Source: Balanoglossus misakiensis (lineage: Eukaryota; Animalia; Hemichordata). Taken from it: 64,000 nucleotides of DNA. The translations under genes were made by a program, and so were the position numbers. Under the pieces are notes generated by a model, which saw only the letters and a program-made list of their open reading frames with translations, did not search any database and was not told the DNA's origin. The stretch covers positions 8,509,097-8,573,096 of the forward strand of contig CM082598.2 in the NCBI GenBank assembly GCA_040954595.2, in the 5' to 3' direction. Below are positions 1-60,540 of the stretch, piece after piece; positions within the stretch are counted from its first letter, which is position 1; each line of letters opens with the position of its first letter.

Positions 1-3000
1 GAATTCAAAGAATGGTCACATAACAGGCCATGCTTTACTAAAAAGACTTATGTATAGTTTCAAGGGTTTGTTTTGGAATAATGAATTCTCTACAAGATTT
101 AAGTGGAACAGTCACAGAATGAAAACAAATATGGAAAGAGTTATGCTGGAATGTTGTAAGAGATAGATTAATATTGCAAATAATTTTATTTCTTACATCA
201 TAAATGGAATTCAAAGAATGGTCACATAACAGGCCATGCTTTACTAAAAAGACTTATGTATAGTTTCAAGGCTTTGTGTTGAAATACCGAATTCTCTCCA
301 AGATTTAAGTGGAACAGTCACAGAATGAAAACAAATATGGAAAGAGTTATGCTGGAATGTTGTAAGAGATAGATTAATATTGCAAATAATTGTATTTCTT
401 ACATCATAAATGGAATTCAAAGAATGGTCACATAACAGGCCATGCTTTACTAAAAAGACTTATGTATAGTTTCAAGGGTTTGTGTTGAAATACCGAATTC
501 TCTCCAAGATTTAAGTGGAACAGTCACAGAATGAAAACAAATATGGAAAGAGTTATGCTGGAATGTTGTAAGGGATAGATTAATATTGCAAATAATTTAA
601 TTTCTTACATCATAAATTGAATTCAAAGAATGGTCACATAACAGGATATGTTTTACTAAAAAGACATGTATAGTTTCAAGGGTTTGTGTTGAAATACCGA
701 ATTCTCTCCAAGATTTAAGTGGAACAGTCACGGAATAAAAACAAATATTGAAATAGTTATGCTGGAATGTTGAAAGGGATAGATTAATATTGCAAATAAT
801 TTAATTTCTTACATCATAAATTGAATTCAAAGAATGGTCACATAACAGGCCATGCTTTACTAAAAAGACATGTATAGTTTCAAGGGTTTGTGTTGAAATA
901 CCGAATTCTCTCCAAGATTTAAGTGGAACAGTCACAGAATGAAAACAAATATGGAAAGAGTTATGCTGGAATGTTGTAAGAGATAGATTAATATTGCAAA
1001 TAATTTTATTTCTTACATCATAAATGGAATTCAAAGAATGGTCACATAACAGGCCATGCTTTACTAAAAAGACTTATGTATAGTTTCAAGGCTTTGTGTT
1101 GAAATACCGAATTCTCTCCAAGATTTAAGTGGAACAGTCACAGAATGAAAACAAATATGGAAAGAGTTATGCTGGAATGTTGTAAGGGATAGATTAATAT
1201 TGCAAATAATTTAATTTCTTACATCATAAATGGAATTCAAAGAATGGTCACATAACAGGCCATGCTTTACTAAAAAGACTTATGTATAGTTTCAAGGGTT
1301 TGTTTTGGAATAATGAATTCTCTACAAGATTTAAGTGGAACAGTCACAGAATGAAAACAAATATGGAAAGAGTTATGCTGGAATGTTGTAAGAGATAGAT
1401 TAATATTGCAAATAATTTTATTTCTTACATCATAAATGGAATTCAAAGAATGGTCACATAACAGGCCATGCTTTACTAAAAAGACTTATGTATAGTTTCA
1501 AGGCTTTGTGTTGAAATACCGAATTCTCTCCAAGATTTAAGTGGAACAGTCACAGAATGAAAACAAATATGGAAAGAGTTATGCTGGAATGTTGTAAGAG
1601 ATAGATTAATATTGCAAATAATTGTATTTCTTACATCATAAATGGAATTCAAAGAATGGTCACATAACAGGCCATGCTTTACTAAAAAGACTTATGTATA
1701 GTTTCAAGGGTTTGTGTTGAAATACCGAATTCTCTCCAAGATTTAAGTGGAACAGTCACAGAATGAAAACAAATATGGAAAGAGTTATGCTGGAATGTTG
1801 TAAGGGATAGATTAATATTGCAAATAATTTAATTTCTTACATCATAAATTGAATTCAAAGAATGGTCACATAACAGGATATGTTTTATTAAAAAGACATG
1901 TATAGTTTCAAGGGTTTGTGTTGAAATACCGAATTCTCTCCAAGATTTAAGTGGAACAGTCACGGAATAAAAACAAATATTGAAATAGTTATGCTGGAAT
2001 GTTGTAAGGGATAGATTAATATTGCAAATAATTTAATTTCTTACATCATAAATGGAATTCAAAGAATGGTCATATAACAAGCCATGTTTTACTAAAAAGA
2101 CTTATGTATAGTTTCAAGGCTTTGTTTTGATATACCGAATTCTCTCCAAGATTTAAGTGGAACAGTCACAGAATGAAAACAAATATGGAAAGAGTTATGC
2201 TGGAATGTTGTAAGGGATAGATTAATATTGCAAATAATTTTATTTCTTACATCATAAATGGAATTCAAAGAATGGTCACATAACAGGCCATGCTTTACTA
2301 AAAAGACTTATGTATAGTTTCAAGGGTTTGTTTTGGAATAATGAATTCTCTACAAGATTTAAGTGGAACAGTCACAGAATGAAAACAAATATGGAAAGAG
2401 TTATGCTGGAATGTTGTAAGAGATAGATTAATATTGCAAATAATTTTATTTCTTACATCATAAATGGAATTCAAAGAATGGTCACATAACAGGCCATGCT
2501 TTACTAAAAAGACTTATGTATAGTTTCAAGGGTTTGTTTTGGAATAATGAATTCTCTACAAGATTTAAGTGGAACAGTCACAGAATGAAAACAAATATGG
2601 AAAGACTTATGCTGGAATGTTGTAAGGGATAGATTAATATTGCAAATAATTTAATTTCTTACATCATAAATGGAATTCAAAGAATGGTCACATAACAGGC
2701 CATGCTTTACTAAAAAGACTTATGTATAGTTTCAAGGGTTTGTTTTGGAATAATGAATTCTCTACAAGATTTAAGTGGAACAGTCACAGAATGAAAACAA
2801 ATATGGAAATAGTTATGCTGGAATGTTGTAAGAGATAGATTAATATTGCAAATAATTTAATTTCTTACATCATAAATGGTATTCAAAGAAAGGTCACATA
2901 ACAGGATATGTATAGTTTCAAGGCTTTGTTTTGGAATAACGAATTCTCTACAAGATTTAAGTGGAACAGTCACAGAATGAAAACAAATATGGATAGAGTT

Positions 3001-3342
3001 ATGCCGGAATATTGTAAGGGATAGATTAATATTGCAAATAATTTAATTTCTTACATCATAAATGGAATTCAAGGAATGGTCACATAACGGGCCATGTTTT
3101 ACTGAAAAGACTTATGTATTGTTTCAAGGCTTTGTTTTGGAATAATGAATTCTCTACAACATTTAAGTGGAATAGTTACAGAATGAAAACAAATATGGAT
3201 AGAGTTATGCCGGAATATTGTAAGGGATAGATTAATATTGCAAATAATTTAATTTCTTACATCATAAATGGAATTCAAGGAATGGTCACATAACGGGCCA
3301 TGTTTTACTGAAAAGACTTATGTATAGTTTCAAGGCTTTGTT

Positions 3343-3471
3343 TAGAGAATAATGTGCCCCCCACAGACCCATAATGGACGAAAGCACACATTGTACGACA
3401 TAATATACGAGGCGAAGCCGAGTATATTATGGAGTACAATGTGTGCTTGAGTGGGGGGCACATTTTTCTTA
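3343..3471 (+). other. Terminal imperfect hairpin of the Crypton element
   Basis: ...GGAC GA AAGCACACATTGTAC GA CATAATATAC GA GGC GAA GCC GA GTATATTATG GA GTACAATGTGTGCTT GA GT..., closed by TAGAGAATAATGTGCCCCCC / GGGGGGCACATTTTCTCTA. Confidence 0.93.
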
Positions 3472-3804
3472 TTATTTTATAGTTTTGTCAATGCCAGTGA
3501 ATTTGCAGACGTCAAAAACATAAATAAAAACCCGTAGCAGCACTAACGCGAGCCGCCAGCATTCACTGTGGCCCTAAATCTGAATACTCAATACAGCCTG
3601 AAACACTGCACAACATCGTGAACATCCAACCGGGCTTTGATCCAATTGATCCAAACCCATACAATCACTTCCTACATAAACAATATGAAATCGACAGTAT
3701 CGAAAACAATTTTTATTGACATTAAACAACAATACCTTAAAATGCCGGAGATTGTAAAAACATTTGAAAATTCATGTAAAGTTCACAGATAAATTCGAAA
3801 AAAA

Positions 3805-5354
3805 TTATCCTTCAGTCATGTCCTTCGCGTTCGCGGGGGGTGCGGGATTACCTGACAAGGTCACGTATACGGGCGCTTGAAAGGTACAGTTCGCGAACAT
3901 ACTGGAGAGGTTATTGTGGCGGGACGCTGACATTGACGTCGAAACCACGGTTTGTTGATCTATGTTACATGGATTTGAAACCGGTTGTTGTCGTTGTTCG
4001 AGACTATTCTCGACAGGACCCGGCGGACAAAAAGCTTCACTGGATTTACCGGTGGCATGAGATTGGATTTCGCGAACACGACCGCGGCCGTTTCCATAAA
4101 TGCTGTCTGAGAGACACGACGACAGCTGACGTTGTTGGCCAGTGGAAGGTTGATTCGTGTAACTTTTGACGCTGGCTTCATTCACATGACCGCTAACGTA
4201 CATGATGTGACGTGTGTCAAATCCAGCATCATCGAGAAGTTTGCAGGTGGTGGCCCGGATACAATGGTTAGTGTACATCTTAGACAATCCTGCTTCCTTA
4301 CTCAGTGTTTTCATAAGCAAACCTAGGGTACATTCGCCAATCGGCGCGTTTACGTACCAGCAAGACTCTTCGGGGTTGAATGGGGATTTCGGGCGTTGAA
4401 ACAGTGAATTATTGGCAGGGTTTAATAAACCAATGTACTTTTGAAATGATGCAACAGGACAGCGGGGTGTTTTTGTCTCATACATTCTGGCGTGACAGGT
4501 GTAATTGTCGTCTGCACCACCGGCATGGTTTTTGACCTTTTCGTTGAACGTGTACTTCACGTATCGTTGACCGATGTCATCTCTTTCGATAACATAGGAA
4601 GACTTGGTCAAATTTCTTACACCTTCACGACCTCTTCTACCAAAGTGCAACATAAGGTCAAACCAAACTTTCCGTTGGAGTCCAACATTGCTCGCAACTG
4701 AAAATATCGGGGACGTCGAAAGCTTTGCTAAATCGCCGGTGCTGATAGGTTGCTTGTGGGTTGTCGTATCTTTCCCTTCTTGCTTCTTAGTTTTGATGAC
4801 ACCACGGAAAACGTAATTCGCGACTTGGAATTCCCTATCGTGCATAATATTGATTTTACGGTGGGAAGGGGGGCCGGTAATATGACGATGGAGCGAAGCG
4901 CGCAAACCGGATATTGATAATTTGCCGTATTCTTGGCCATCTTGCTTACGGGTCGATGCGTAAAATTCGCGGAGGCGCTCTGCTAGCTGATCTACAGGAA
5001 GATGTTCAAAATCGCCTGAATATTTCTTAAAATCCAGCCATTCTACAAAGAAAACAAGCAAAATAAAGTCACGAACCTGAAGATTTCGTTAGATTTCATT
5101 TTTTAAAAATAAGGATTTAGTATTTGACCTCGAGAAAAATTTGCATACGTAAACAAAGCCCTCCGTAACTTGGCTAGGCTGCGACTCGGTTATAATAATT
5201 GTGTTACAAGACACAGTTCAGTCGAGAAAAATAAATTTTAAATACCTTTAAACACACGTACTCCCCACTTCGTTTGCTGTGTAGTCTTTTTCTCATTTCT
5301 AGCATTTTCAAGGTTGTTTAGTTGGTTTTCGTCAACATCAAGGAATCGAGCCAT
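3805..5354 (-). CDS. Tyrosine recombinase of the Crypton/DUF3504 (ZMYM/KCTD1/QRICH1-related) family; 2 exons, complement(join(3805..5042,5246..5354)), ~448 aa
   Basis: Exon 1 MARFLDVDENQL...TKWGVRVFK joins via a phase-1 GT-AG intron (5043-5245) to EWLDFKK. Catalytic set present: R (FGRRGRE), K (EKVKNH), HxxR (NHCIRAT), H (SGH), Y (SVKSY). No stops or frameshifts. Confidence 0.92.
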
Positions 5355-8300
5355 GTTGTATTCGGTGAACTGCGTTCTGTTTGTGTGCGAGCAGACGACG
5401 AGAAGACTACGTCGCGCGCGTGTCGGTCGTGTTGGGCAGAAACAATTACACAAATCGCAGAAAATGTTTTTGGAAATTAATAATTGTCACCATTATTGGT
5501 TTTATTTTGTGATTTTACATATATTTTACCCCTTAATTTTCTAATTTTCTTGTAAACCTACGTTAGTCATCAGAATTGTATACATTATGCTAGTTCTTGG
5601 GCGCGTCCACTGTAATAACACGATACATTATCAGTAATAATGTATAGCTATGACGTCACAAAATTCACTGGTATTGATAAAGCTATAATATAATTTGGAA
5701 TAATGAATTCTCTACAAGATTTAAGTGGAACAGTCACAGAATGAAAACAAATATATAAAGAGTTATGCCGGAATGTTGTAAGGGATAGATAATAATCATA
5801 GTCACAGAATGAAAACAAATATTGAAATAGTTATGCTGGAATGTTGTAAGGGATAGATTAATATTGCAAATAATTTAATTTCTTACATCATCAATGGAAT
5901 TCAAAGAATGGTCACATAACAGGCCATGCTTTACTAAAAAGACTTTTGTATAGTTTCAAGGGTTTGTGTTGAAATACCGAATTCTCCACAAGATTTAAGT
6001 GGAACAGTCACAGAATGTAAACAAATATGGAAAAAGTTATGCTGGAATGTTGTAAGAGATAGATTAATATTGCCAATAATTTAATTTCTTACATCATAAA
6101 TGGAATTCAAAGAATGGTAACATAACGGGCCATGTTTTACTAAAATGACTTATGTATAGTTTCAATGGTTTGTGTTGAAATACCGAATTCTCCACAAGAT
6201 TTAAGTGGAACAGTCAAAGAATAAAAACAAATATTGAAATAGTTATGCTGGAATGTTGTAAGGGATACATTAATATTGCAGAAAAATTAATTTCTTACAT
6301 CATAAATGGAATTCAAAGAATGGTCACATAACAGGCCATGCTTTACTAAAAAGACTTATGTATAGTTTCAAGGGTTTGTGTTGAAATACCAAATTCTCTC
6401 CTAGATTTAAGTGGAACAGTCACAGAATGAAAACAAATATGGAAAGAGTTATGCTGGAATGTTGTAAGAGATAGATTAATATTGCAAATAATTTTATTTC
6501 TTACATCATAAATGGAATTCAAAGAAAGGTCACGTAACAGGATATGTATAGTTTCAAGGCTTTGTTTTGGAATAACGAATTCTCTACAAGATTTAAGTGG
6601 AACAGTCACAGAATGAAAACAAATATGGAAAGAGTTATGCTGGAATGTTGTAAGGGATAGATTAATATTGCAAATAATGTAATTTCTTACATCATAAATG
6701 GTATTCAAAGAAAGGTCACATAACAGGATATGTATAGTTGCAAGGCTTTGTTTTGGAATAACGAATTCTCTTCAAGATTTAAGTGGAACAGTCATAGAAT
6801 GAAAACAAATATGGAAAGAGTTATGCTGGAATGTTGTAAGGGATAGATTAATATTGCAACTAATGTAATTTCTTACATCATAAAATGAATTCAAAGAATG
6901 GTCACATAATGTGGGTATGTTTTACTAAAAAGACATGTATAATTTCAAGGGTTTGTGTTGAAATACCGAATACTCTCCAAGATTTAAGTGGAACAGTTAC
7001 AGAATGAAAACAAATATTGAAAGAGTTATGCCAGAATGTTGTAAGGGATAGATTAATATTGCAAATAATTTAATTTATTGCATCATAAATGGAATTCAAA
7101 GAATGGTCACATAACGAGCCATGTTTTACTAAAAAGACTTATGTATAGTTCCAAGGCTTTGTTTTGGAATAATGAATTCTCTACAAGATTTAAGTGGAAC
7201 AGTCACAGAATGAAAACAAACATGGAAAGAATTATGCTGGAATGTTGTAAGGGATAGATTAATATTGCAAATAATTTAATTTCTTACATCATAAAATGAA
7301 TTCAAAGAATGGTCATGTAACAGGATATGAATAGTTTCAAGGCTTTGTTTTGGAATAACAAATTCTCTACAAGATTTAAGTGGAACAGTCACAGAATGAA
7401 AGCAAATATGGAAAGAGTTATGCTGGAATGCTGTAAGGGATATATTAATATTGCAAATAATTTAATTTCTTACATCATAAATGGAATTCAAAGAAAGGTC
7501 ACATAACAGGATATGAATAGTTTCAAGGCTTTGTTTTGGAATAACAAATTCTCTACAAGATTTAAGTGGAACAGTCACAGAATGAAAACAAATATGGAAA
7601 GAGTTATGCTGGAATGCTGTAAGGGATAGATTAATATTGCCAAATAATTTAATTTCTTACATCATAAAATGAATTCAAAGAATGGTCACATAACAGGATA
7701 TGTTTTACTAAAAAGACATGTATAGTTTCAAGGGTTTGTGTTGAAATACCGAATTCTCTACAAGATTTAAGTGGAACAGTTACTGAATGAAAACAAATAT
7801 TGAAAGAGTTATGCCGGAATGTTGTAAGGGATAGATTAATATTGCAAATAATTTAATTTCCTACATCATAAATGGAATTCAAAGAATGGTCACATAACGA
7901 GCCATGTTTTACTAAAAAGACTTATGTATAGTTTCAAGGCTTTGTTTTGGAATAACAAATTCTCTCCAAGATTTAAGTGGAACAGTCACAGAATGAAAAC
8001 AAATATGGAAAGAGTTATGCTGGAATGTTGTAAGGGATAGATTAATATTGCAAATAATTTTATTTCTTACATCATAAATGGAATTCAAAGAAAGGTCACG
8101 TAACAGGATATGTATAGTTTCAAGGCTTTGTTTTGGAATAACGAATTCTCTACAAGATTTAAGTGGAACAGTCACAGAATGAAAACAAATATGGAAAGAG
8201 TTATGCTGGAATGTTGTAAGGGATAGATTAATATTGCAAATAATTTAATTTCTTACATCATAAATGGAATTCAAAGAATGGTCACGTAACAGGATATGTT

Positions 8301-10095
8301 TTACTAAAAAGACATGTATAGTTTCAAGGGTTTGTGTTGATATACCGAATTCTCTACAAGATTTAAGTGGAACAGTTACTGAATGAAAACAAATATTGAA
8401 AGAGTTATGCCAGAATGTTGTAAGGGATAGATTAATATTGCAAATAATTTAATTTCCTACATCATAAATGGAATTCAAAGAATGGTCACATAATGAGCCA
8501 TGTTTTACTAAAAAGACTTATGTATAGTTTCAAGGCTTTGTTTTGGAATAACAAATTCTCTCCAAGATTTAAGTGGAACATTCACAGAATGAAAACAAAT
8601 ATTGAAATATTTATGCTGGAATGTTGTAAGGGATAGATTAATATTGCAAAAAAAAATAATTTCTTACATCATAAATGGAATTCAAAGAATGGTCACATAA
8701 CGAGCCATGTTTTACTAAAAAGACTTATGTATAGTTTCAAGGCTTTGTTTTGGAATAACAAATTCTCTCCAAGATTTAAGTGGAACAGTCACAGAATGAA
8801 AACAAATATTGAAATATTTATGCTGGAATGTTGTAAGGGATACATTAATATTGCAAAAAAATTAATTTCTTACATCATAAATGGAATTCAAAGAATGGTC
8901 ACATAACAGGCCATGCTTTACTAAAAAGACTTATGTATAGTTTCAAGGGTTTGTGTTGAAATACCGAATTCTCTCCAAGATTTAAGTGGAACAGTCACAG
9001 AATGAAAACAAATATGGAAAGAGTTATGCTGGAATGTTGTAAGAGATAGATTAATATTGCAAATAATTTTATTTCTTACATCATAAATGGAATTCAAAGA
9101 ATGGTCACATAACAGGCCATGCTTTACTAAAAAGACTTATGTATAGTTTCAAGGGTTTGTTTTGGAATAATGTATTCTCTACAAGGTTTAAGTGGAACAG
9201 TCACAGAATGAAAACAAATATGGAAAGAGTTATGCTGGAATGTTGTAAGGGATAGATTAATATTGCCAAATAATTTAATTTCTTACATCATAAATGGAAT
9301 TCAAAGAATGGTCACATAACAGGCCATGCTTTACTAAAAAGACTTATGTATAGTTTCAAGGGTTTGTGTTGAAATACCGAATTCTCTCCAAGATTTAAGT
9401 GGAACAGTCACAGAATGAAAACAAATATGGAAAGAGTTATGCTGGAATGCTGTAAGGGATAGATTAATATTGCCAAATAATTTAATTTCTTACATCATAA
9501 AATGAATTCAAAGAATGGTCACATAACAGGATATGTTTTACTAAAAAGACATGTATAGTTTCAAGGGTTTGTGTTGAAATACCGAATTCTCTACAAGATT
9601 TAAGTGGAACAGTTACTGAATGAAAACAAATATTGAAAGAGTTATGCCGGAATGTTGTAAGGGATAGATTAATATTGCAAATAATTTAATTTCCTACATC
9701 ATAAATGGAATTCAAAGAATGGTCACATAACGAGCCATGTTTTACTAAAAAGACTTATGTATAGTTTCAAGGCTTTGTTTTGGAATAACAAATTCTCTCC
9801 AAGATTTAAGTGGAACAGTCAAAGAATGAAAACAAATATGGAAAGAGTTATGCTGGAATGTTGTAAGGGATAGATTAATATTGCAAATAATTTTATTTCT
9901 TACATCATAAATGGAATTCAAAGAAAGGTCACGTAACAGGATATGTATAGTTTCAAGGCTTTGTTTTGGAATAACGAATTCTCTACAAGATTTAAGTGGA
10001 ACAGTCACAGAATGAAAACAAATATGGAAAGAGTTATGCTGGAATGTTGTAAGGGATAGATTAATATTGCAAATAATTTAATTTCTTACATCATA

Positions 10096-10643
10096 CATCG
10101 TTGTGTTTACGCTAGAGCCAATATGCTCATACGTAGATTTAGTCATTGTTCACAACGTGTGAAATGTACGCTCTTTAAGAGTTTCCTGTACAGTATGTAT
10201 TGTATGAATGTGTGGTGTAACTATAACACCAAATGCATGTCAAATCTGAAAATTGCTTATCACAATGCACTGCGTTTGATCTTTGAACTGAAACGAGACA
10301 TTAGCATAAGTTACAATTTTGTCACAAAGGATATTATGAACTTTAGCTCGTTGCATCGCAAGTTGTTATACTCTCTTGCCACAAGACTTTTGAACAGTAG
10401 TAATGCTGTTGTATATGCCTGCACTCACTCTGACCTGTATTTCCATTCAAGATTTTGGAAGCACTATAGAAACATTCTGTACTAGGGGATGAGGACCGAC
10501 CTTCCACCCCCTCTCGCCACGACGTTGTAGTATTTTATTATTTTTTCTTCAGATTTTAATGTGTGTGTTCTTGTTTTTTACTTCTCTTGCTGTGTTTTTA
10601 TGGGCTACGAGCCTGAAATAAAGATTATTATTATTATTATTAT
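10096..10643 (+). mobile_element. 5'-truncated non-LTR retrotransposon (LINE, probably CR1/L2-group) 3' end
   Basis: ORF 10123-10485 resembles a LINE ORF2 C-terminus (KCTLFKSFLYSMYCMNVW). It is followed by a 3' UTR, AATAAA and an (ATT)n tail, and interrupts the satellite at CATCATA|AATGGAATTC. Confidence 0.85.
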
Positions 10644-14443: not shown

Positions 14444-16996
14444 TTATTTGCTGGAGTCCCTTCTGGCCAATTCTGGCAAAACATAGGTAAAATAAAATTC
14501 CCCCAGGGCTGGTAACATTTTGCTTCACAAAAGTGTATCTTTAAAAATTCTCTCAACAGCAAAACCACTCGGTGACCAAACAACTAAATCACACCACTCA
14601 AGCCCACAAACAAAGAACTGCCCTTGTATCTGGTAATAATATCTGTGATTTCTTTGTAATCTAATCTTACTATCTACAAAATAAAAAAAAGTATCAGGCA
14701 TTTCGGAAGCTTCCACTGGTGTACGCTTTGCATATTTTGAGAGAGATTTAACCTCTACACAGCCATATTGAGCACTGATATCAACACTCAACTTAATAGC
14801 AACAAATTTATCCAAGGAAGCACCTAAGAAAGGAAAACTTGGGTTGACAACTAAACCCATGTCTCTTGATGTAACTGAGTAGCCCTTTCTTTCCAGATCT
14901 TGGATGTACTGTGCTACAGCAATGTGTTCACTTTGAATGCCCCATTTGGTGTGCTTATTTGAAAATTTCCTTTGGTGAAATAATGTTATCAACCAAAGTG
15001 TCAGGGGGGGGGGGTACTTTTGCCTGCAGACAACATCTTTAAATTTGCTCGCCGTGATTCTCAATTCACGTTGTGAGTACCAATTTGGATTTCTGTATTG
15101 GCCCTGAGTGGACATCTCTATTCTGCTTGACTCTGCAACACTCGAAACATTAACCTTAGATTCATAAAAATCATATAAATCCTCATTAATATTGTAAATA
15201 AGTTTTCCGGTATGACTGCTCTCACTGGGTTGTACATTGCAAAACTCATCAGAAGTTACGTCTACATTATTTCCCAAAGCTTCAGTAACTTGACATGGTA
15301 CAGTGTTGTTAATAGCAGGCTCACAATCATTGGAATACAGTAGCTCAACAAGTTGACCACAAGCACTCAGGAAGTCAGCAAGTTGTGTTACCTTTTCTTT
15401 TGTAACAATTTTATCTTTTGTTGGCCATGCATAATATTCACTTTTTCTTTTTCGGGGACGATATACTTTATCTGAATTACAGTCACGTTCATAGTCATAC
15501 TTAATCCAGTCAATTGAGTCAAATTTGACAGCTGTGTTTCCATAAACGCTGGGATGGTGATGAACTTGTAATTTCTCAGTGCATGCAGCTGTATCTGGTA
15601 CCTCCTTCAGTCCACATCTATGAAAATCCATTATGGCAAAAATGGTGGCAGCTATGTGTTTGCAGTATCCACCAGCACCCGCTTTACATACACATTTACC
15701 TCCAAGTATTTTACCTGTGTTCTGATCGAGGAGAACTAGGGTGGAGTACTGTTATTTTGAGGGGTACTGGATCAACAGCCTTGGAATATGACTTGACAAC
15801 CATTGATTTAATAAATAACACTGACTGATGCTCGCGATCATGAATTAAAATGTTCTTGACATGGTTACTCTTGTAAAAGTTCCAACCACTATCCCTATGT
15901 TTTCGAGCAGTACTGTGGCAGTTGTCGCACTTTGTGATGAAATAATCAAAAATGGTGCAATCAGTTAAATCGGGCAGATTACTTATGTTCCTTGTCCATC
16001 CTCCTGCTGGAGGATATGTCAGCATTGACTCCACAGTGTTGACAGACACTTGAACTTGGCACCCTTCACCACGATTACCAGCTCCATCAGGATCAACCAA
16101 GTACTGCTTGTCCCATCCATGACCAATGTATAAATGCACAATATTTAAAAGAATGTTAATACTGCTCTAGGGTGGGTAAAGTACTGCACTTTACTAAAAC
16201 AAAATCAATTAATCAAAGAAATAACTCCATTTTCCCAATGTTTACATTAGAAAAAAAAGTTGTTGAGACTTTAATATATTCTAAATGAACAAAATATTTT
16301 ATTTCGTGATTGAAACAAAAATTTGATTGTTTTACTTAGTTAGTTATTCAAGTACATGAATCTATTCAAACTTGATGCCCCAGCATGACCTGCATACATA
16401 CAATGTTGTAAATATGTAGCTGCTGTATACATTGTACTACATCAACGGCCCATTATCTAATCCCTTCGTTACAAACTGACAATCTACATCAACATCTTTG
16501 GCTCTAAATTTTGCAAGCTCTAGCTCTACAATGGACGAAAGACAGCCTGCCAGTATGACGTGCGTAACATCGTCACGCACGGTAAGGGTACCGGGCCTGA
16601 TATAACCCGGGCCGATCGTCGATCTGTACTATGCAGTCAAACACGATCCCTCCAGAAAATTACTAGTATATTTCGGCTACCAAGCGAGTTGCCAGTATTC
16701 ACGCTAACAATAGGTTGCTCAGTTTATTTTTTGCACAAATCGGGGTGGGCGGCGAACTTCACATGTGTGAAATGAAATCTTGTGCAGCTTGGCTGTCGGC
16801 GATAGCAGTCGGTAGCAGGCAGCATTACAAAAACTCGCTAAAAATTATAAAATTTTCGTTACCTTTCAACAAGTTCTCGCTTGTTTCCACGTAGACTGGC
16901 ACCCTTTCTGCATCTCAGCCATCTCTTCAGCTCTGTTATGGTCAATTCTTCTGGTTTACGACATTTTAAATCTGACCTCGGAATCGCGGATTACAT
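14444..16996 (-). pseudogene. SAP + SWIM zinc finger + YqaJ/lambda-exonuclease-like (PD-(D/E)XK) gene, transposon-associated, disrupted
   Basis: SAP-like exon 16863-16996 (PEELTITELKRWLRCRKGASLRGNKRELVER, GT donor; ATG followed at once by TAA). SWIM CVCKAGAGGYCKHIAA at ~15650-15705. YqaJ motifs WYSQRELRITAS, WGIQSE, LGASLD, VEVK, YYYQIQGQ. Frameshifts at ~15750 and ~14530; shifted C-terminus LGEFYFTYVLPELARR. Confidence 0.85.
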
Positions 16997-37032: not shown

Positions 37033-37371
37033 TGCATACTTTGCGGTATTTTCGTAATAATCTTATTATACATCTTACATCTCCGTTAGATCTTGTGTTG
37101 CATGTTACTTGGCTTTCAAAACGCCCAAAATGCCGATACAATCGATCGAAAACCGCTCAGTTGACTCAGTGGGCAGCCATCTTTCTTTTTTGTTTACGTG
37201 TGCGCACCTGCGTTGGAGTGGGGGTGTCTTGAAACCGTCCGCATAACAACGCACACCTGTACACGGTGAGTTGGGGCGCCTTGAAACCTAAAACTTATTT
37301 AACACGCGTTCCCTACGGCTTTTTTAGCGCACGCTAAATTCTATTGTTCTCAGTGCCAGATGTATAATAAT
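37033..37371 (-). mobile_element. Partial inverted copy of the 440-bp IR/hairpin element at 59334-59773 (outer hairpin arm missing)
   Basis: Close reverse-complement match to 59334-59687; ends AGATGTATAATAAT at 37358-37371. Confidence 0.85.
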
Positions 37372-40300
37372 TTGTTTTATCGTATTGCACCAGATTCTCC
37401 AAGACTCTCTTTTTAGACACATAAATTAACAAACAGACAGCAGACGACAACAAGGTCACGTTCCTACAGCACGACGTTCTCATCAACTGCGAAGCGATCG
37501 ACGATGGCTGCAGGATCATTGCAGGAAATCAATGAGAAAACATTTGAAACAGGTATGCGCCCTCAAACTACGTAGAGCACATTTGAGAATGTCTCTTTTT
37601 ACATAACTTTTTGGTCATATTCTCGCAAATGTAGAGCTAACAAATGATTAATTGTTTAAATTTGTTGATCTAGTTGCATAAGTATGTCAAAAACTAATAT
37701 TATGTAGCAGTTTATAACGAATCCATTGTGTACATCTGAATTTCAAATGAAGTTTCGCACTAAATTGAAAAATGATACATGAGCATAGAATAAGAAATTA
37801 CATCATTTGATCATGATCTCAATTTGCATGTCTTAATCAAAGCTAATGAAATTGTTGTATTTCAATACCTAACCCCTTTAACCACCATGGTTCAGACCAA
37901 ACCCATTGTTTTCTATGGTGAGGACCTCTAAAGAAGGAACTGTAAGATTTGATCATTTTCCCAATGCGTTTTTGTTGAGTATTCACGGTGTGTTTTGTCC
38001 AGATTTAATCTTAATCATTGAGTGAGCAGCCTTGAAATACAGTCCCATATTGCCAGTTTTTGCTATTTTTGACAATGTTGGGGGGTCTTTTATATTTTTG
38101 AAACTCACCAGAAGGCCTTGTGTACACAGTAGTTGTACACTATAGAATATATGGATAGGAGTACAGCAACATGCCTATAGCCATGCTATTTAGTAATGGA
38201 TGTCTAGGTCTCGAAACCTGTTGGCCTTGCAACTGGAGAGTACATACTCTTGACTCAGCTGAAATGTTGACTTCTTGAGGTGTGACGTAGTATTGTTGAT
38301 AAAGGCTCCAAAATACTGAGAGAGAAATAAAAACAAAAGTTTCAGTGCCAATCGATTATATTTAAATGCACATTTGTGAAAAACCGCTAACCTTTAAAAG
38401 TTTGTAAACATTGTTGCAATCTGGTCAAAATCTTAGATTAAATGATTCATATGTGAGAAAGAGGTGTTATGAAAGGTTAGATTTGTAGGGTTTTAGTATG
38501 TTTGAGACCAATCTATGTCTTTGGTTCTAAACTAACTAACTAAACAAACTCATTGGTTACTCAGGACAATTATCCCCAACATATGTACAGATATAGGGCT
38601 GACTCGGTATGTCTGGAAATCCTCAAATTAACTCACATTATGTTTTTAGAGAGCACACTTGTTATTACGTTTGACTGGTGCTTTCTTTCATTTGCTTCCA
38701 TCACCTTTGAAGTTTGACTCCATGCAGAACATCTATGGCAGCTGAGTTCAACAGGTTAAAGGTATACAGTCTCCTATGCAAAGTTAGCTACAGTTACCAT
38801 GGCAAATTGAAGATATTTTACTGTAATTAAAAATACACAGATGAATGGAATTTAGATTAATTCCCTACTCAGAAAGCTACACAATGAAAATGCCAAAAAT
38901 TCAGGACCATAGAAAGTTTGTTTTGCTGAAAAATGGGACATTCAGTAATGATAATTTTGTGTATTTCAAAGGTCGAGATATCATTGGTGTTATGCTCAGC
39001 TAGCAAATTTGGGTTGAGGGATCTCTTGAAAATTTTCCTTCCACCAATGTTATTCATCTTTGATCTCATAAATTATATAACTCTATCTAATGACAATACG
39101 CTCTGTGTGTTTGAGGGATAAGTTAATTAGTATGAGACCAAATATAATTGATTTGTTTGGCACTTGGATGTAACCTGTGATCAAATGGCAGCGCAGTGGC
39201 CAAGACACTGTTTTGGAGAAATCCGCTCGCTGAGCAAATTGACGAGAAACTAATTTGCGTTTCTCGATTACACGCCATTACATTTTTTGTCCTCCGAAAA
39301 GCAACGGCTGAGTGTATGATAGACTATTGTGAACAATATAAAGGTCTTTGCCCAAGGGTGCCTGCATGAAGGTTTCCTGCAGCGAACGGGAACAGCATTT
39401 GGGAAATCTATTTTCACTGTGAATGCGAATCTTGATATTTCGGTATTAAATGAGCAACACTATGGCCTATAGGGCTTTACGTCTTTGAAATAATATAATA
39501 CCCTGTTGGCAAGATCCCAGCTATTGTCAAATGTTATCTCTTCATGTAGAATGCAAGCTGATTTATATAAAGGCAGGAACGAATATCTTTTAAATTAGCG
39601 TGCGTCTCAGTCACGTACACCGATTTCATACAACCCATCCAATGTGTCAACTGCAAAATCATACTGAAACAAATAAGTATCAATTACTGCGCTTTTCATG
39701 TATATAATTGCGATCATACCCATTCATTGGTGAAAAATACATTATTTACATGTTCAGTTGCCGAGCCAAACAGTCAAAAATTGATACAGCGCAGCACACA
39801 GACCAAAGTCAAGTCTGTGAAAGACAGATATATGACCCGGAAGTGATGTCATTATTTTTTCTAAACTTCCCACCTAACCGACCATGTGGCACCCGCCATG
39901 TATAATCCTGGCTTTCTCGTTTTAAATGAACGAGAAAAGTTCGTGTATATTTTCACTCACAAAGACAAACTTCTTCTTGTTAAGTTAATATCAAGTACTT
40001 TACTTCTCTACCCAAACTTCTTCAGTTGTGTAAATGTAAGTGGTAGAGCAAATGCAAGCAATTATACATTGCTAACATAATCCGGTAGGATTGTTGCTTG
40101 TGCAATGTAGTATTATTTGAAATGTACTTCAAAGACAAAGGAGGCATTTCGTTCTCAAAACTCAAGATGTAGTGAAGGTTTTTTACCTGATGTGCAAGTA
40201 AACTCCAATTTGAAACTTTCTGACTCGTTTCCTGACAGCTAGCAGCCAAACAAAAAAACTTAGTCGTTTTTTCAGAAATTCATATTGTCTGAGTACCTCT

Positions 40301-41751: not shown

Positions 41752-43585
41752 TATAATAATGCTTTATTTGCATTTCAAGGCCTCCGGCCCATGTGCAAAG
41801 GGGGGTTACATTCAGTATTTCCATTACTTCGTCAAAACAAAACAAAAACAAAACAAAAAGATACAAACATCACGTGGATAATGAAAACGGAAGTAAGTTA
41901 CAGTGGGAGACAATTACAAATCAGAAGTGAAAATGTTATACATTTGCATCAGCTCTTTCTCTGAGCTTGACTGCTCTATGAACAAAATTACAAAGCCTGA
42001 GTATGGTGTCTGAATCATTTGTGTTCATTACATTGGTAAACTTATAAAAGTTTGGCTCTTAAAACAGATAAGTCGGTAAGTATCGTACTCTGAGATTGTT
42101 ATACAGTGGACAAATTACTAGAAAGTGGTACTCATCTTCAACTGCTTTGGTGTTACAAAATTTACAATGTCTGTCTGCTGGGTCGATGTGGTGTCTTCTG
42201 CCTTCCTCTATAGCGAGGGGAAGTGAAGAACACCGAAAACGTGAATACATTTGGATAACAGTGTGGTGACACTGGATGGAAAGATATTTTTCAGGTTCTA
42301 AAATACTCTTGAATTGAATGTAAGTGCGAAGTTTTGGTTTCAATGCCATGTTTTCTCTCCATTGTTGTCTAAAAATATCCTGCACTCTTAGTTGAAATGT
42401 CGAAAGAAATAATTGCTTGTTGCCCACTTCCTGAGCAACCCATGCAAAACCTAGCCCAAATGAGAACAGAATATCCTTTATAGATGACGCCCAAGTACGT
42501 CTGCCTATACTGTCCAAATTACATAACATAATATAAGCTTGTTTCGGAATTCTGTCATTGGGCATTTCTAACAGCTTTAACCAAAAACTGATACGTTTCA
42601 GGGTGTAATAATAAATAGGGAAGCGCCCACATTCTCCTAGTACAGCTTCATTTGTCGCATTCTTAGGTAAACCCAATATTCTTCTGCACCAATTCCTTTG
42701 AATTTTCTCTATAGCATCAAAATATTGGTGGCCCCAGACTTCTGAACCATAACAAAGGATTGGCAGAATAAGCACATCAAACAGTTTAAAATGAACATTA
42801 CAATCAAAGTGACCAAGTTTCCACCTTGCGACTGAGAGTGAAGTTAAGGCTTTGTTTGCTTGGTTGGCTAAGGTGCAAACTGCTTTGGACCATGAATTTC
42901 GTGAGGAAAGGAGAAGGCCAAGGTACTTGAATAAGAAACAATCTCAATCGCAGTTCCATTAAAATGCCATTTCTCCCATCGCGAACGATGGCCACCTTTA
43001 CGAAATATCATTACCTTTGTTTTATCAAAATTGATCTGCATACGCCATTAAGGGCAAAAGAGGGCTAAAATGTCAATCAAACATTGCAAATTTCTAATAG
43101 AATCAGCAAAAATGACAACATCATCTGCGTATAATAAACAGAAAAGGTCATACAATTCTTGGGTAAGCTGAACACCCATAATACCAGCTGACATGTACAT
43201 AGAATTAAGTTCTTCTATAAAGAAACTGAATAATATAGGGCTTAGGATACATCCCTGCCTGACCCCAGCTGGACAATCAAAATAGTGTGATGAGACATTG
43301 CCCGCTCTGACACATGACTTAATGTTGGAATACATGGATTTTAAAATACGAAACATTTTCCCCTTGATGCCTAGCGACATGAGTTTGTACAACAGGAGGG
43401 AGTGGTTAACCCTGTCAAATGCCTTGGAAAAGTCAATGAAGAGACAGTAAAGTTTTCCACGACGGACACTTAAATATTTCTGAATGATGGCGTGTAAGGT
43501 AAAAATGTTATCCGTAGTGCCGTGATTTTTTCTAAAACCTGCTTGGCAGTCTGAGAGGATATTTGAGGAGTTATATTCACAACAC
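41752..43585 (-). mobile_element. 5'-truncated LINE (RT domain to 3' end), disrupted
   Basis: QAGFRKNHGTTDNIF, LFIDFSKAFDRV, GVRQGCILSPILF, LLYADD, PILCYGSEVWG and C-terminal CKFC...EDEYHFLVIC; AATAAAG(CATTATTAT) 3' end; frameshifts. Confidence 0.92.
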
Positions 43586-45406
43586 AATTGTAGGCAGTTG
43601 GTCTGGATATAGTCGAGTAGAACTGAACCCGAAATTGGCATAACCGTGAAGTACGGTACAAATGCGATCTTTTTGTGATAAGATGTGATGAAGCAGAGGT
43701 CATACAGAATTGAGCGAACACAATTGTACAAATAATGTATATGTATTACACGAAAAGTTAAACTGTTTTTACTAAGAGAACATCTACAAAAAAAGTAATG
43801 ATGTTAGAAATTAGCAAATGGTTATTTCGAGTATAACACCCAACCGGCCCGGGCGACGATGCATTTCAAGACTCAGATAGCCAGAGTCTATCGAAACACA
43901 GTAAGTGCACGATATGTGCACACATGGCACTTTTTAACCATCACAATGTCGATATTTCTCTGTCAATTAATGTGCAGTTGCCCTATTTGCTAACAGAGAG
44001 GTCCCAAACATAGGCGTACATGATTTCAGAGATGCCACTTTATGAAATGTTTATCGAAGCTTCTCCATGCAACTGGAAAGCATCTTTGTTGGCCTTGTAA
44101 CTGTCACAAATCACTGGTTATGAAACAGACACTCTATTTGACAAAAGTGCATTTTCACTCATTAATCTCTATACTAAAGCTGACACAACTATCTGTAACT
44201 TGTGAATACTTTGTCAGGTTTATTGGTCTGTATGTAAACCATGGTTCTTTATTCAGCTCCCTATATCAGGATTAGTATTTATCCACTCAACTCTACCAGC
44301 ATGTAGAAAAAATTAATCAAATAACACAAGTGAGGTTGAACTATTAAGCTAAGAATATTTATTTCCAGGTAAGCGTCATATGTTTATGGCTTCAGTGTGA
44401 TATTTTGGCATCCTGCATTGTTTTATGGACAGTCACTTCATCATATAACTGTAATGTCAGCATGAAAGTTAGGATGAAAATTACCGTTATGGACATTTAT
44501 AAAGAAAAACGCTTGTATGATCATGAATAGAAGTGAAAGTACAATGAAAGGAGTGTGTAAGAATAGAACGCCCCATGGGTGTAAGAAATTGAATGTGACC
44601 TGTTTCAATCGAAATTTCCCACGGAATGTTTAAACGTCCTTGTCACCGAGGCCAATTTCATGAGTTTTAGCCTGCACAACGGATGATGATCTCAGACCAT
44701 GATGATGATGATGGCGATATTCATCTTTATATATTCGAGTAACAAACACCAAACATTCAAAAATGAATGTAAATAATGAATGCTGAAATACCGTCAAGAA
44801 CGATCGATCTACACTGAGTTGGGGAAACACGTATCTTGATAATTATATGAAGTTGGTCAAACTCACAAACTAAATCTAAACGAACCAATTCCAGTAGAGT
44901 ATTACCACGACTGCACTTGAAAAGTCCAAGAAAAGTTTTCCTGTGTTGAGCTTGGGTGCACTCTCGGAGCGAGCAGACTTGCCAAGCATCTGGAAACTGG
45001 CAATCATTCTACATATAAGCAACGCGTCTCACAGACGAGGAACGGCTAGATCAATCGCTTAGGTAAGTAAGCGGGTTTTTAAGCCCCTAAGAATCTTTGT
45101 TTCGCGCGAAGAAATTGATAAAAATCAAATTCATCCCAGTGTGTATTTATAATAATCTATGATATCGTGCAAAAACACTCCAGCACCGATTCCTTATTTT
45201 CTTCGCGTATATTCTAGTAATCATGTACGAATAACCATATACTCTTCAGCCTATGAAAGTCAAGAAACTAATTTACGTTCCCACATTGCAACTGTTCGTT
45301 CAATGGTGCATAAAACCAACGTTATATAGAACATCGTGGTCCTCATTATATTACTGTCTTCTCCCGTTCGCATAGGTGATCACAAATCAGAAAGCAACGT
45401 CAGAAA

Positions 45407-46508
45407 ATGGCACTATTTTCAAACGACACGGGTTTGGATGGGGTAACAAATGGAACTGATTCAGAAGTCGACCTATTCAGCTTTAACACACCATTTAAAT
45501 ATGCAGTCCTGTCTGTATCGATAATCGGCCTGATAGACAACGTTCTCGTCTGTTTCGTCATCTGCCGCGTCCAGGCTCTGCAGACGCTCACCAATGCCTT
45601 TGTTTTCAACCAAGCACTAGTAGACGCGCTGACGTCGTTCCTGATCGTCACTTCATTGAAGTAACACGCTACCCCGGTCTTGTCGGTCACTTCCTCTGTC
45701 GTGTTTGGGCGTCCAGATATTTGCTATGGGTATGTCTAAGTGCATCAACATTCAGTCTTATGACGATATCCTTTGAGAGATACTTTGCCCTAGTCTATAC
45801 CCTACGTCACCGAGCTACTTTCACAGCTAGAAAAGTTGGAGTAATTATCGCAATAATCTGGATTTTATCCTTTGTGTTATCTCTATACGTAGCGGTTTTC
45901 ATTGTGAATGTATCCCCAACTAGTGAATGTTATCTCACAGATATGTCAGATATAGTAAGAACGGCCGTAGCTGTATATGTATTCTCTTACCAGTATTTCA
46001 TACCACTATCGTCCATGTCATTTGCATATCTGCGCATAGCTCTTGCAATGCGCAGTTATTCGAAAACAGCTATTCTTAAGCAACAATTCGCATCAGGTGC
46101 AAACAACACGGGCACGGAGAATGTACAAGGGTGTCCTGTAAACAATGTACGGCAGGTTTCTCTCGACAAAGCTCGCAAAAATGTATACAATAACTTCTTT
46201 CTATTTTTCTTTGCGTATATCATCTGCTGGTCGCCAAGTCAGATATATTTCATGCTGTTCTATGTATTGGATCTATTTGGCACATTTAGCTGGAGGGTTC
46301 GCGAATATTTCATTGTCTTGGCTTACTGCAATTTATGCATCAACCCTATAATCTATGCTCTGCAATATGAGCGTTTCCAAACTGGTTTGTGAAAGCTTTT
46401 GACGACAGTGTGCAAACGATCTCTCCCCAAGAGAAACCTGTCTGGTGTAATTGACTGTATAGAACACAAACAGTTCAATGTAGACAGTCAAGTTATGTAT
46501 GACTAAGG
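45407..46508 (+). pseudogene. Class A (rhodopsin-like, peptide-receptor-like) GPCR with intronless CDS, disabled
   Basis: TM1 IIGLIDNVLV, TM2 NQALVD, TM3 ISFERY, TM6 CWSP, TM7 NLCINPIIY. Frameshift near 45650 and likely premature TGA at 46390-46392. Putative 5'UTR intron (GTAAGT ~45063 to CATAG ~45375). Confidence 0.88.
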
Positions 46509-59333: not shown

Positions 59334-59773
59334 ATTATTATACATCTAGTGCCGAGAACAATAGATTTTGGCGTGCAATAAAAAGCCGTACGGAACGGTA
59401 CGTACGGAACGCGCGTTAAATAAGTTTTAGGTTTCAAGGCGCCCCAATTCACCGTGTACAGGTATGCGTTGTTATGCGGACAGTTTCAAGGCGCCCCAAC
59501 TCCAACGCACGTGCGCACACGTAAACAAAAACAAAGATGGCTGCTCACTGAGTCAACTGAGCGGTTTTCGATCGATTGTATCGGCATTTTGGGCGTTTTG
59601 AAAGCCAAGTAACATGCAACACAAGAACTAACGGAGATGTAAGATGTATAATAATAAGGTTATTACGAAAATACCGCAAAGTATGCACGAGGACATTACC
59701 GCACCGCATCTGTCTGATACTGAGCGCTAATGTCCTCGTGCATACTTTGCGGTATTTTCGTAATAACCTCATA
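59334..59773 (+). mobile_element. 440-bp non-coding element with IR...IR+terminal hairpin architecture
   Basis: ATTATTATACATCT (59334-59347) / AGATGTATAATAAT (59642-59655), then a perfect 41-bp stem (59658-59698 / 59728-59768). Empty-site-like paralog TCCGA|TTATCTCAATTTTTGGCG at ~60305-60327. Confidence 0.82.
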
Positions 59774-60540
59774 TTATCTCAATTTTTGGCGATCGATCTA
59801 TAAAATAAAATTGTGGAGTAAGTAGGCAACCATGGTGATGCTTCCGGTGGAACGCCATTGACGAATGAGTTACCTTCCCTCAAATCGAACGCCACTTCAG
59901 TGCTCTGATTGGTTGAGCGAAACGGATTTGGAGAGCGGTTTGACCGCGTCTCTGAAAAGCCAAAGGTCATTGATGGCGCCCTCTTGAGAGGCTAGCCGAA
60001 CCTCTCTTATCATTGCCTTTCCAGAGGGCGCCGTCAATGACCTTTGGCTTTTCAGAGACGCGGTGCAAGACGTCTCTCCAAATCCGTTTGAGCTCGTGCT
60101 CTGATTGGCTAGTACCATGCAAGATGTTGCTTCATATGATTGGCTAATATGCCAGACAGAAGTTCCATCGCGTGCATGGATCGCGTGCACGTTCGATCAG
60201 TAAGCGTAACGTCCTTGTCACGTGACGTGGCATACGTGTAGAACAGACGTTCAGAACAACAAACGACACTTGTACTCGTAAATTATGATTACGTGTAAAA
60301 TAATTCCGATTATCTCAATTTTTGGCGATCGATCTATAAAAATGAAATCGTGAAGTAAGTAGGCAACCATGGTGATACTTCCGGTGGACGCCATTGACGA
60401 ATCAGTTACCTTCCCCTAAATCGAACGCCACTTCAGCGCTCTCATTGGTTGAACGAAACGGATTTGGAGAGACCTCTTGACCGCGTCTCTGAAAAGCCAA
60501 AGGTCATTGAGGGCGCCCTCTTGAGAGGCAACTCTTATCA
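59774..60540. repeat. Direct repeat (59774-59992 vs 60310-60529) overlapping a ~170-bp foldback (59920-60089)
   Basis: CCGCGTCTCTGAAAAGCCAAAGGTCATTGA at ~59944 and ~60481; its reverse complement at ~60034-60063. Confidence 0.85.

Follow-up and report, generated by a model that had tools for sequence, protein, structure and literature searches.

Within a 64,000-nt stretch of the Balanoglossus misakiensis genome (hereafter the window), we identified a CryptonA DNA transposon with an intact tyrosine recombinase (YR) gene, the 3′ end of which is a long, strand-polarized hairpin. This end structure is real, conserved, and part of a known transposon group, and it is apparently unpublished. We are confident that this fold functions as DNA and has a defined polarity. 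Comparative sequence evidence makes it somewhat probable that the folded antisense single strand is the recombination substrate of the YR and undergoes one strand exchange. The broader proposal, on which we are evenly divided, is that animal CryptonA elements are eukaryotic single-strand transposons, in which a Cre-family recombinase would excise and integrate one self-splinted, G.A-stabilized strand by a single exchange.

The element is a 2351-bp insert (3344-5694, minus strand) interrupting one satellite unit, with ends good only to 1-2 nt because a T run lies at the boundary. The insertion site reads GCTTTG-TTTT-GGAATAATG, and the empty site is thus known from the satellite units. The true 3′ terminus lies at 3343-3344, and contigs of other copies diverge from the window at 3342 and 5692. 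The empty site showed neither a 4-6-bp direct repeat, such as the terminal repeats of fungal and oomycete Cryptons (CryptonF, CryptonS), nor a 5-7-nt foreign coupling sequence, and the junctions share at most 1-2 T. As to the 3-nt NTT repeat at both ends of DIRS1-like elements, TTT stands beside both element ends on the plus strand, but the satellite itself supplies four T, and overlaps in relatives are 0-2 nt. An 8-bp sequence (GAATAATG) is shared by the target right of the insertion (5697-5704) and the hairpin foot (3347-3354); this likeness of target and 3′ end (CATTATTC) is not general among other flanks.

As expected of CryptonA, the element lacks TIRs, long direct repeats, and a target duplication; its one inverted copy is asymmetric, being internal at one end. 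The gag and RT/RH ORFs and ITRs of a DIRS1-like element are absent within 3344-5694. The HUH nuclease of Helitrons, Helentrons, and IS200/IS605 is also absent, with Pfam and the fold search both pointing to a tyrosine recombinase. The tree behind the YR comparison was built from the loci and database proteins. Readings of the locus as a Helentron, as a miRNA, or as a simple TIR element with a passenger hairpin were considered and rejected.

Table 1. Features of the CryptonA element and its left flank (window coordinates).
Feature	Position	Strand	Basis
Autonomous CryptonA element	3344..5694	-	Satellite junctions, length, departure points of other copies
3′-terminal hairpin	3344..3470	+ (antisense to YR, carries G.A pairs)	Fold, sequence
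Three tandem GA/GA mismatches	3380..3450	+	Sequence; middle one GT/GA in most other host copies
GCGAAGC DNA mini-hairpin cap	3412..3418	+	Sequence; Tm from PMC13037366
Left-arm segment unpaired owing to copy-specific 15-nt deletion	3363..3379	+	Sequence, contigs
Junction complement (ICR-like), inverted copy of far terminus, continues inner hairpin arm	3471..3514	+	
Far (5′) terminus, partner of 3471-3514	5651..5694	+	
Small palindrome ATACATTAT-CAGTA-ATAATGTAT near 5′ end, like motif at hairpin foot	5623..5645		Sequence, fold
YR exon 1 (36 codons + 1 nt)	5246..5354	-	72% identity to P0002 residues 1-36
203-nt GT-AG intron	5043..5245	-	Predicted from homology
YR exon 2, open frame	3805..5042	-	Phage_integrase + DUF3504
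206-bp satellite, left flank (continues 5695 to ~14300)	1..3342		

The element is occupied by a single YR gene with two exons (minus strand: 5354-5246 and 5042-3805, separated by the intron) and encodes no RT, no DDE transposase, and no source of ssDNA. The protein matches the Pfam domains Phage_integrase and DUF3504, the latter at E = 3.7e-5, below the curated cut-off, which a 71%-identical relative (P0002) passes; GCR1_C gave no match. The catalytic residues R152, K186, H275, R278, H301, and Y310 (P0001 numbering) are all present. Across 41 sequences, R152 and H275 are invariant, while R278, Y310, K186, and H301 are at least 90% conserved. The predicted structure (mean pLDDT 79.9) has Cre as its closest fold, followed by Tn1549 Int, QRICH1, Xer, and IntI; no integron-type adaptation is visible in the model, nor is an I2-like domain evident. 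Among 106 matches, the closest proteins are from Ptychodera (71%) and Glandiceps (70%). The intron occupies one shared position in the window and in five hairpin-bearing clusters of relatives (L016, L024, L029, L046, and L057), which argues against a spliced RNA intermediate; hairpin clusters L034, L036, L037, L039, L063, L064, L065, and L068 are apparently intronless. Upstream of the gene, near the 5′ terminus (5580-5660), the words TGACGTCA and GCGCG are promoter-like, as is GCGCTCTGATTGG at the 5′ ends of relatives (L016, L024, L029, L073). These words suggest that the element may carry its own promoter.

The earlier note had described the 3′ end as a palindrome with three tandem mismatches, and a check of the sequence confirmed its coordinates: stems of 15, 10, and 3 bp are separated by GA/GA at 3380-81/3449-50, 3397-98/3432-33, and 3409-10/3420-21 and capped by GGC-GAA-GCC (3411-3419), with an outer stem of 14 bp (3351-3364/3451-3464). 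None of 200 shuffles folded as well (z = -13.9). The window contains three ungapped hairpins with a score above 13, the terminal hairpin among them, and scanning both strands returned it as the only GA-core hairpin. Rfam gave no match in 3300-5750 at E up to 1, and none of 55 pattern matches in viral contigs was a relative. The note's statement that only one strand folds well was too strong in silico, where ViennaRNA gave -45.0 kcal/mol for the plus strand vs -43.7 for the minus strand; across loci, the differences were small, ran in both directions, and did not discriminate the strands. Because this model scores sheared pairs incompletely, the folding asymmetry rests on published measurements (PMC13037366, PMC8163305). 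Melting temperatures are 76.5 °C for GCGAAGC, 69.5 °C for GCGTTAGC, and 39.0 °C for r(GCGAAAGC); among the 64 triloops, the mini-hairpin was formed by GNA alone, and it is much weaker in RNA (PMC13037366). The sheared stacking of tandem GA is very large (PMC8163305).

Other host copies were read from contigs of three runs of one sample (X1, X2, and X3), possibly the window's own source. Statements about their variants, including those on both outer GA/GA, hold among the variants listed, beyond which lie 54 lower-ranked ones. The right arm had been thought to lack 15 nt between GT microhomologies. This loss is real, and other copies keep those nucleotides: two contigs spanning the loop (X1 record 2, X3 record 17) carry 15 extra letters, and loose ends behind 3452 start with CCATTATGGGTCT in 3 + 4 contigs. 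Position 3350 pairs with 3465 in other host copies, and a compensatory change links 3395 A>G with 3435 T>C. The substitution 3398 A>T (depth 8533/9513 in X1 and 31291/44243 in X2) turns the middle mismatch mostly into GT/GA, which on the plus strand would still give G.A plus T.G. Four joints run from 3395-3499 to 5580-5623, linking both ends in deleted copies, and contig depth, which is not a copy number, is 6,600-86,000 at the ends vs 120-1,200 in the interior. Both the joints and this large difference in depth hint that non-autonomous copies with internal deletions exist.

To place the hairpin among relatives, we built a profile from the window protein and 40 of the 106 matches (41 proteins) and took the best 80 of 353 related metagenome-contig stretches. 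Together with the window, these loci fell into 48 clusters (80% DNA identity). Of the 26 clusters with at least 700 nt downstream of the YR, 18 have a long palindrome there at a distance of 200-1200 nt, vs 4 of 24 upstream (Fisher p = 2e-4). Two shorter contigs add two hairpin clusters, giving 20 of 48. Tandem GA/GA stands on the antisense strand in 18 of these 20 (17/19 without the window) and on the sense strand in none. Taking one representative per cluster, 31 of 41 2x2 loops are GA/GA and 4 are GC/AA, with no TC/TC. Other palindromes in the same loci show neither pattern in 16 of 18 cases; the two exceptions sit past the element terminus and look like neighboring elements, including an inverted one. 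When both strands of the 80 loci were scanned for the loop-proximal core, 25 antisense hits, in 12 clusters, were obtained vs 0 sense hits. The first GA/GA is usually 3-4 bp from the loop and the next ones are spaced ~19-21 bp apart. Loops are GAA, GCA, GTTA, or GTCA with C-G closure, fitting the DNA mini-hairpin set. 1x1 loops show no G.T excess (G/T 14, A/C 10).

The stems themselves are mostly unrelated: of 153 arm pairs compared, only 18 surpassed all 100 shuffles in similarity. Within clades, two-sided changes were found at 44 of 79 base pairs (6 sequences) and at 17 of 60 (4 sequences). The prediction that stems would covary while the strand stayed fixed was thus borne out, with GA/GA and G-N(N)-A loops antisense to the YR in 18 of 20 clusters vs 0. 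As for the fixity of the mismatches, strand and loop polarity are kept; the GA/GA themselves are less constant, the middle one being mostly GT/GA in the host and the motif absent from some lineages. Hairpins occur across the YR tree (28 loci rows of the 48 clusters plus 4 proteins) and are likely ancestral. The clusters thus share descent, the polarity may go back to a single origin, and the sign test cannot be taken as 18 independent events. No long hairpin was seen in 8 of the 26 clusters. L006, L011, L030, and L045 form a supported hairpin-less clade, L049 has a short terminal hairpin only, L047 and L051 have none, the L073 contigs break off close to where the foot is expected, and the palindromes of L007 and L010 lack GA/GA.

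In multi-copy families, the hairpin foot is the element terminus. An independent MITE, with its own TIRs and target duplication and unlinked to the YR, does not fit this position or the joints linking both ends; on the evidence of host joints and family boundaries, the hairpin is the element's own end. Hairpin-ended elements also lie directly against element ends (L020:2410-2588, L024:5908-6038, L048:3184-3258, L018:1-68, and L027:3077-3110); some are arranged head to tail, and one is inverted. The palindrome is prone to deletion: in copies at L031:4200-4325, L033:4274, L057:2683-2802, and L054:1613-1732, internal deletion has collapsed the hairpin, as it has in the window.

The strongest clue, which the earlier note had missed, is a complement of the far end located beside the hairpin. 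Positions 3471-3514 match inverted 5651-5694 at 84% over 44 nt (score 62 vs a maximum of 29 among 1000 shuffles). One of these inverted copies is terminal and the other continues the inner hairpin arm; therefore, joined ends extend the stem across the crossover. The junction folds at -74.7 kcal/mol vs -50.7 with the genomic flank, 40 far-end bases are paired, and the completed palindrome reaches ~220 nt. In all 8 families tested, the far end pairs with the inner tail (11-45 bases paired; 0 of 100 shuffles as good in each), although in four families the pairing covers only 11-17 nt. The far end was fixed independently, from satellite or copy boundaries, in five (window, L020, L024, L029, and L039) and located by the match itself in three (L037, L065, and L068; p 0.005 or less over the upstream region). 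Of 28 loci searched blindly for the far-end match, 11 reached p < 0.02, with at least three matches placed wrongly; short matches later found from copy boundaries were missed. In the far-end helix, where the alignments are noisy, G.T was not favored among antisense-strand mismatches (GT 11, AC 10).

All 21 listed 3′ flanks start with A, junction overlaps are 0-2 nt, and termini in relatives read ..GCTT|A and ..|TAT. The L039 copies have a 4-nt near-repeat, ATTA/A(A/T)TA, at their ends, which fits the classical model. We did not pair metagenome flanks to infer duplications because they are apparently assembly-mixed, with shared 3′ and different 5′ flanks. Some flanks are the ends of other family members (L018; also L027), which suggests that elements may stack.

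We propose the following scheme. The antisense strand would be exposed, probably at a replication fork, and its mini-hairpin cap and sheared G.A pairs would let it fold fast and stay folded; the G.A pairs would also break the perfect palindrome about every 20 bp. The junction complement would then splint both ends side by side, and one YR strand exchange would produce a single-strand circle, the near-perfect stem around its junction mimicking double-stranded DNA as in CTX-phage attP. A single strand exchange with an A/T-rich target would need 0-2 nt of homology and could be resolved by host replication or repair without leaving a duplication. Only self-folding of the antisense strand makes sense of the polarity, the DNA-type caps, and the self-splinting layout. 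The GA/GA pairs lie ~36 bp from the crossover in the window and toward the loop in relatives, and the near-crossover part is an almost perfect duplex. Given this placement, they probably select or stabilize the folding strand and are probably not read like the extrahelical bases of attC. The comparative predictions of the earlier note have held, while use of the folded strand by the YR is a step that we still infer.

Alternative schemes keep the fold and change its use. In one, which we regard as unlikely, the junction complement splints a single-strand circle whose G.A-capped hairpin either shields it or serves as primer for the second strand, and the YR then integrates an ordinary double-stranded circle. 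The layout is that of the DIRS ICR, for which a splinting role has likewise been proposed; DIRS-1 cannot do without its ICR, which works on antisense ssDNA (PMC7192593). Priming sites on phage ssDNA are marked by mini-hairpins (PMC13037366), and telomere overhangs in Streptomyces end in caps with GNA loops (PMC5449611). The remoteness of the GA/GA pairs from the crossover also suits this scheme. Double exchange by YRs normally leaves a 6-8-bp homologous or coupling core, however, and none is present at the known empty site. Rather unlikely as well is a cruciform: supercoiling would drive the palindrome spanning the junction out of a double-stranded circle, and the YR would act on the arm with the G.A pairs. 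In its favor, good folds are predicted for both strands, the completed palindrome is long (~220 nt), the element encodes no ssDNA-making protein, and N4 promoters use extruded GNA hairpins (PMC13037366). Periodic 2-nt mismatches should nevertheless hinder extrusion, by our reasoning, and non-autonomous copies would form very small circles.

We consider it very improbable that the element is a classical double-stranded Crypton, with the palindrome serving as a protein-binding array or passenger MITE and the mismatches being conserved CGAG words that are recognized in double-stranded DNA. Published accounts adopt this model (PMC3212892, PMC13565253), CGAG is a recurrent word in both arms, and the hairpin is missing from some lineages. 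It leaves unexplained why CGAG words lie exactly opposite each other across unrelated covarying stems, as well as the GNA loops and the junction complement, and in multi-copy families the hairpin ends exactly at the terminus. Most doubtful is an RNA intermediate, with an RT supplied in trans as in minimal DIRS and the antisense strand as first-strand cDNA. The folding strand has cDNA polarity, several hairpin families lack the intron, and DIRS RT does act in trans (PMC7192593). Against it, the conserved-position intron is kept in 6 hairpin clusters (window included), the element encodes no RT, and the complement differs from the termini (84% in the window), so it does not act as a recurrent template.

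The element resembles animal CryptonA in being YR-only and of the DUF3504 type, in its length of ~2.3 kb, in lacking a TIR or target duplication, and in its abundant non-autonomous derivatives; unlike published CryptonA, its ends are defined by a polarized hairpin and a junction complement (PMC3212892). It shares with integron attC/IntI the reliance on structure over sequence, a favored strand, and a site completed on circularization, and some Crypton loci show integron-like head-to-tail stacking (PMC4792948). As in CTXphi attP(+) (XerC/D), a strand would be folded, its stem mimicking dsDNA at the crossover, with exchange of one strand predicted here (PMC4792948). Unlike attC, the window element has no GTT/AAC core or extrahelical bases near the crossover, and its G.A mismatches are paired and far off. 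With base pairing almost unbroken beside the crossover and the G.A pairs placed toward the loop, the fold appears nearer to CTX attP than to attC. CTX relies on recombinases of its host, inserts at dif, and brings a rolling-circle Rep of its own, whereas the window element encodes its own YR and has degenerate A/T-rich targets.

As in DIRS1, an internal region near the 3′ end is complementary to both joined termini, the ssDNA polarity is antisense, and the junction is T-rich (PMC3266345, PMC7192593). Unlike DIRS1, the window element has no gag/RT/RH or ITRs, its intron is kept, and its imperfect complement joins the terminus in a hairpin that bears GA/GA pairs. Strand-specific subterminal hairpins, the ssDNA circle that we propose, and the absence of a duplication are also features of IS200/IS605 peel-and-paste and Helitron-type elements, which use an HUH nuclease (5′-phosphotyrosine) where the window element has a Cre-family recombinase (PMC13565253).

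A defined end structure supplies the missing substrate, making the Crypton mechanism testable with oligonucleotides and one purified protein. If insertion of folded ssDNA without double-strand breaks holds true, integron/CTX chemistry would extend to animals, Crypton and DIRS ends would be linked, head-to-tail stacking of elements would be possible, and the end would be a candidate tool for ssDNA insertion. It would also yield a rule for classifying gene-less hairpin repeats. Some Eulor repeats are reportedly described as hairpin-like in Repbase/Dfam. The human Eulor5/6 are CryptonA relics, for which the available portions of PMC5753468 mention no hairpin, and they would be natural cases for such a rule (PMC5753468).

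For animal Cryptons, terminal repeats were not found and a double-stranded circle was assumed; hemichordate CryptonA-2_SK (2289 bp) has its termini given as 'n.d.' (PMC3212892). Palindromes go unmentioned in the available portions of that paper's text and six supplement files. According to a 2026 review, Crypton transposition has never been demonstrated, and a double-stranded circle is again assumed (PMC13565253). The accessible parts of PMC13465315 mention no hairpin or palindrome, and those of PMC12130899 contain nothing relevant to the hairpin end. In the openly available papers covered, we found no description of a polarized Crypton hairpin end.

Elsewhere in the window, the satellite runs from 1 to ~14300; its units of 206, 204, and 186 bp show higher-order organization, and its GC skew stays steady at ~+0.25. 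The same satellite holds a 5′-truncated LINE-like fragment (10094-10625) with an AATAAA + (ATT)n tail and no Pfam match. Minus-strand ORFs at 14525-16166 combine a SWIM finger with a YqaJ exonuclease, as in some DNA transposons, an association that we take to be of the ISL2EU type. A broken LINE reverse transcriptase lies at 42059-43803 (minus strand) and a rhodopsin-family GPCR ORF at 45499-46392 (plus strand). A second long hairpin (59654-59772), with ~45 near-perfect bp and no GA/GA, sits at the end of a repeat that has an inverted partial copy at 37033-37382; its minus strand folds better (-60.6 vs -54.4), and the repeat is possibly another hairpin-ended element. Nearby, a 50-nt unit occurs three times (59943-60064 and 60480-60531), two copies forming a hairpin and the third lying downstream, an asymmetric inverted-repeat layout like that of the Crypton ends but without GA/GA.
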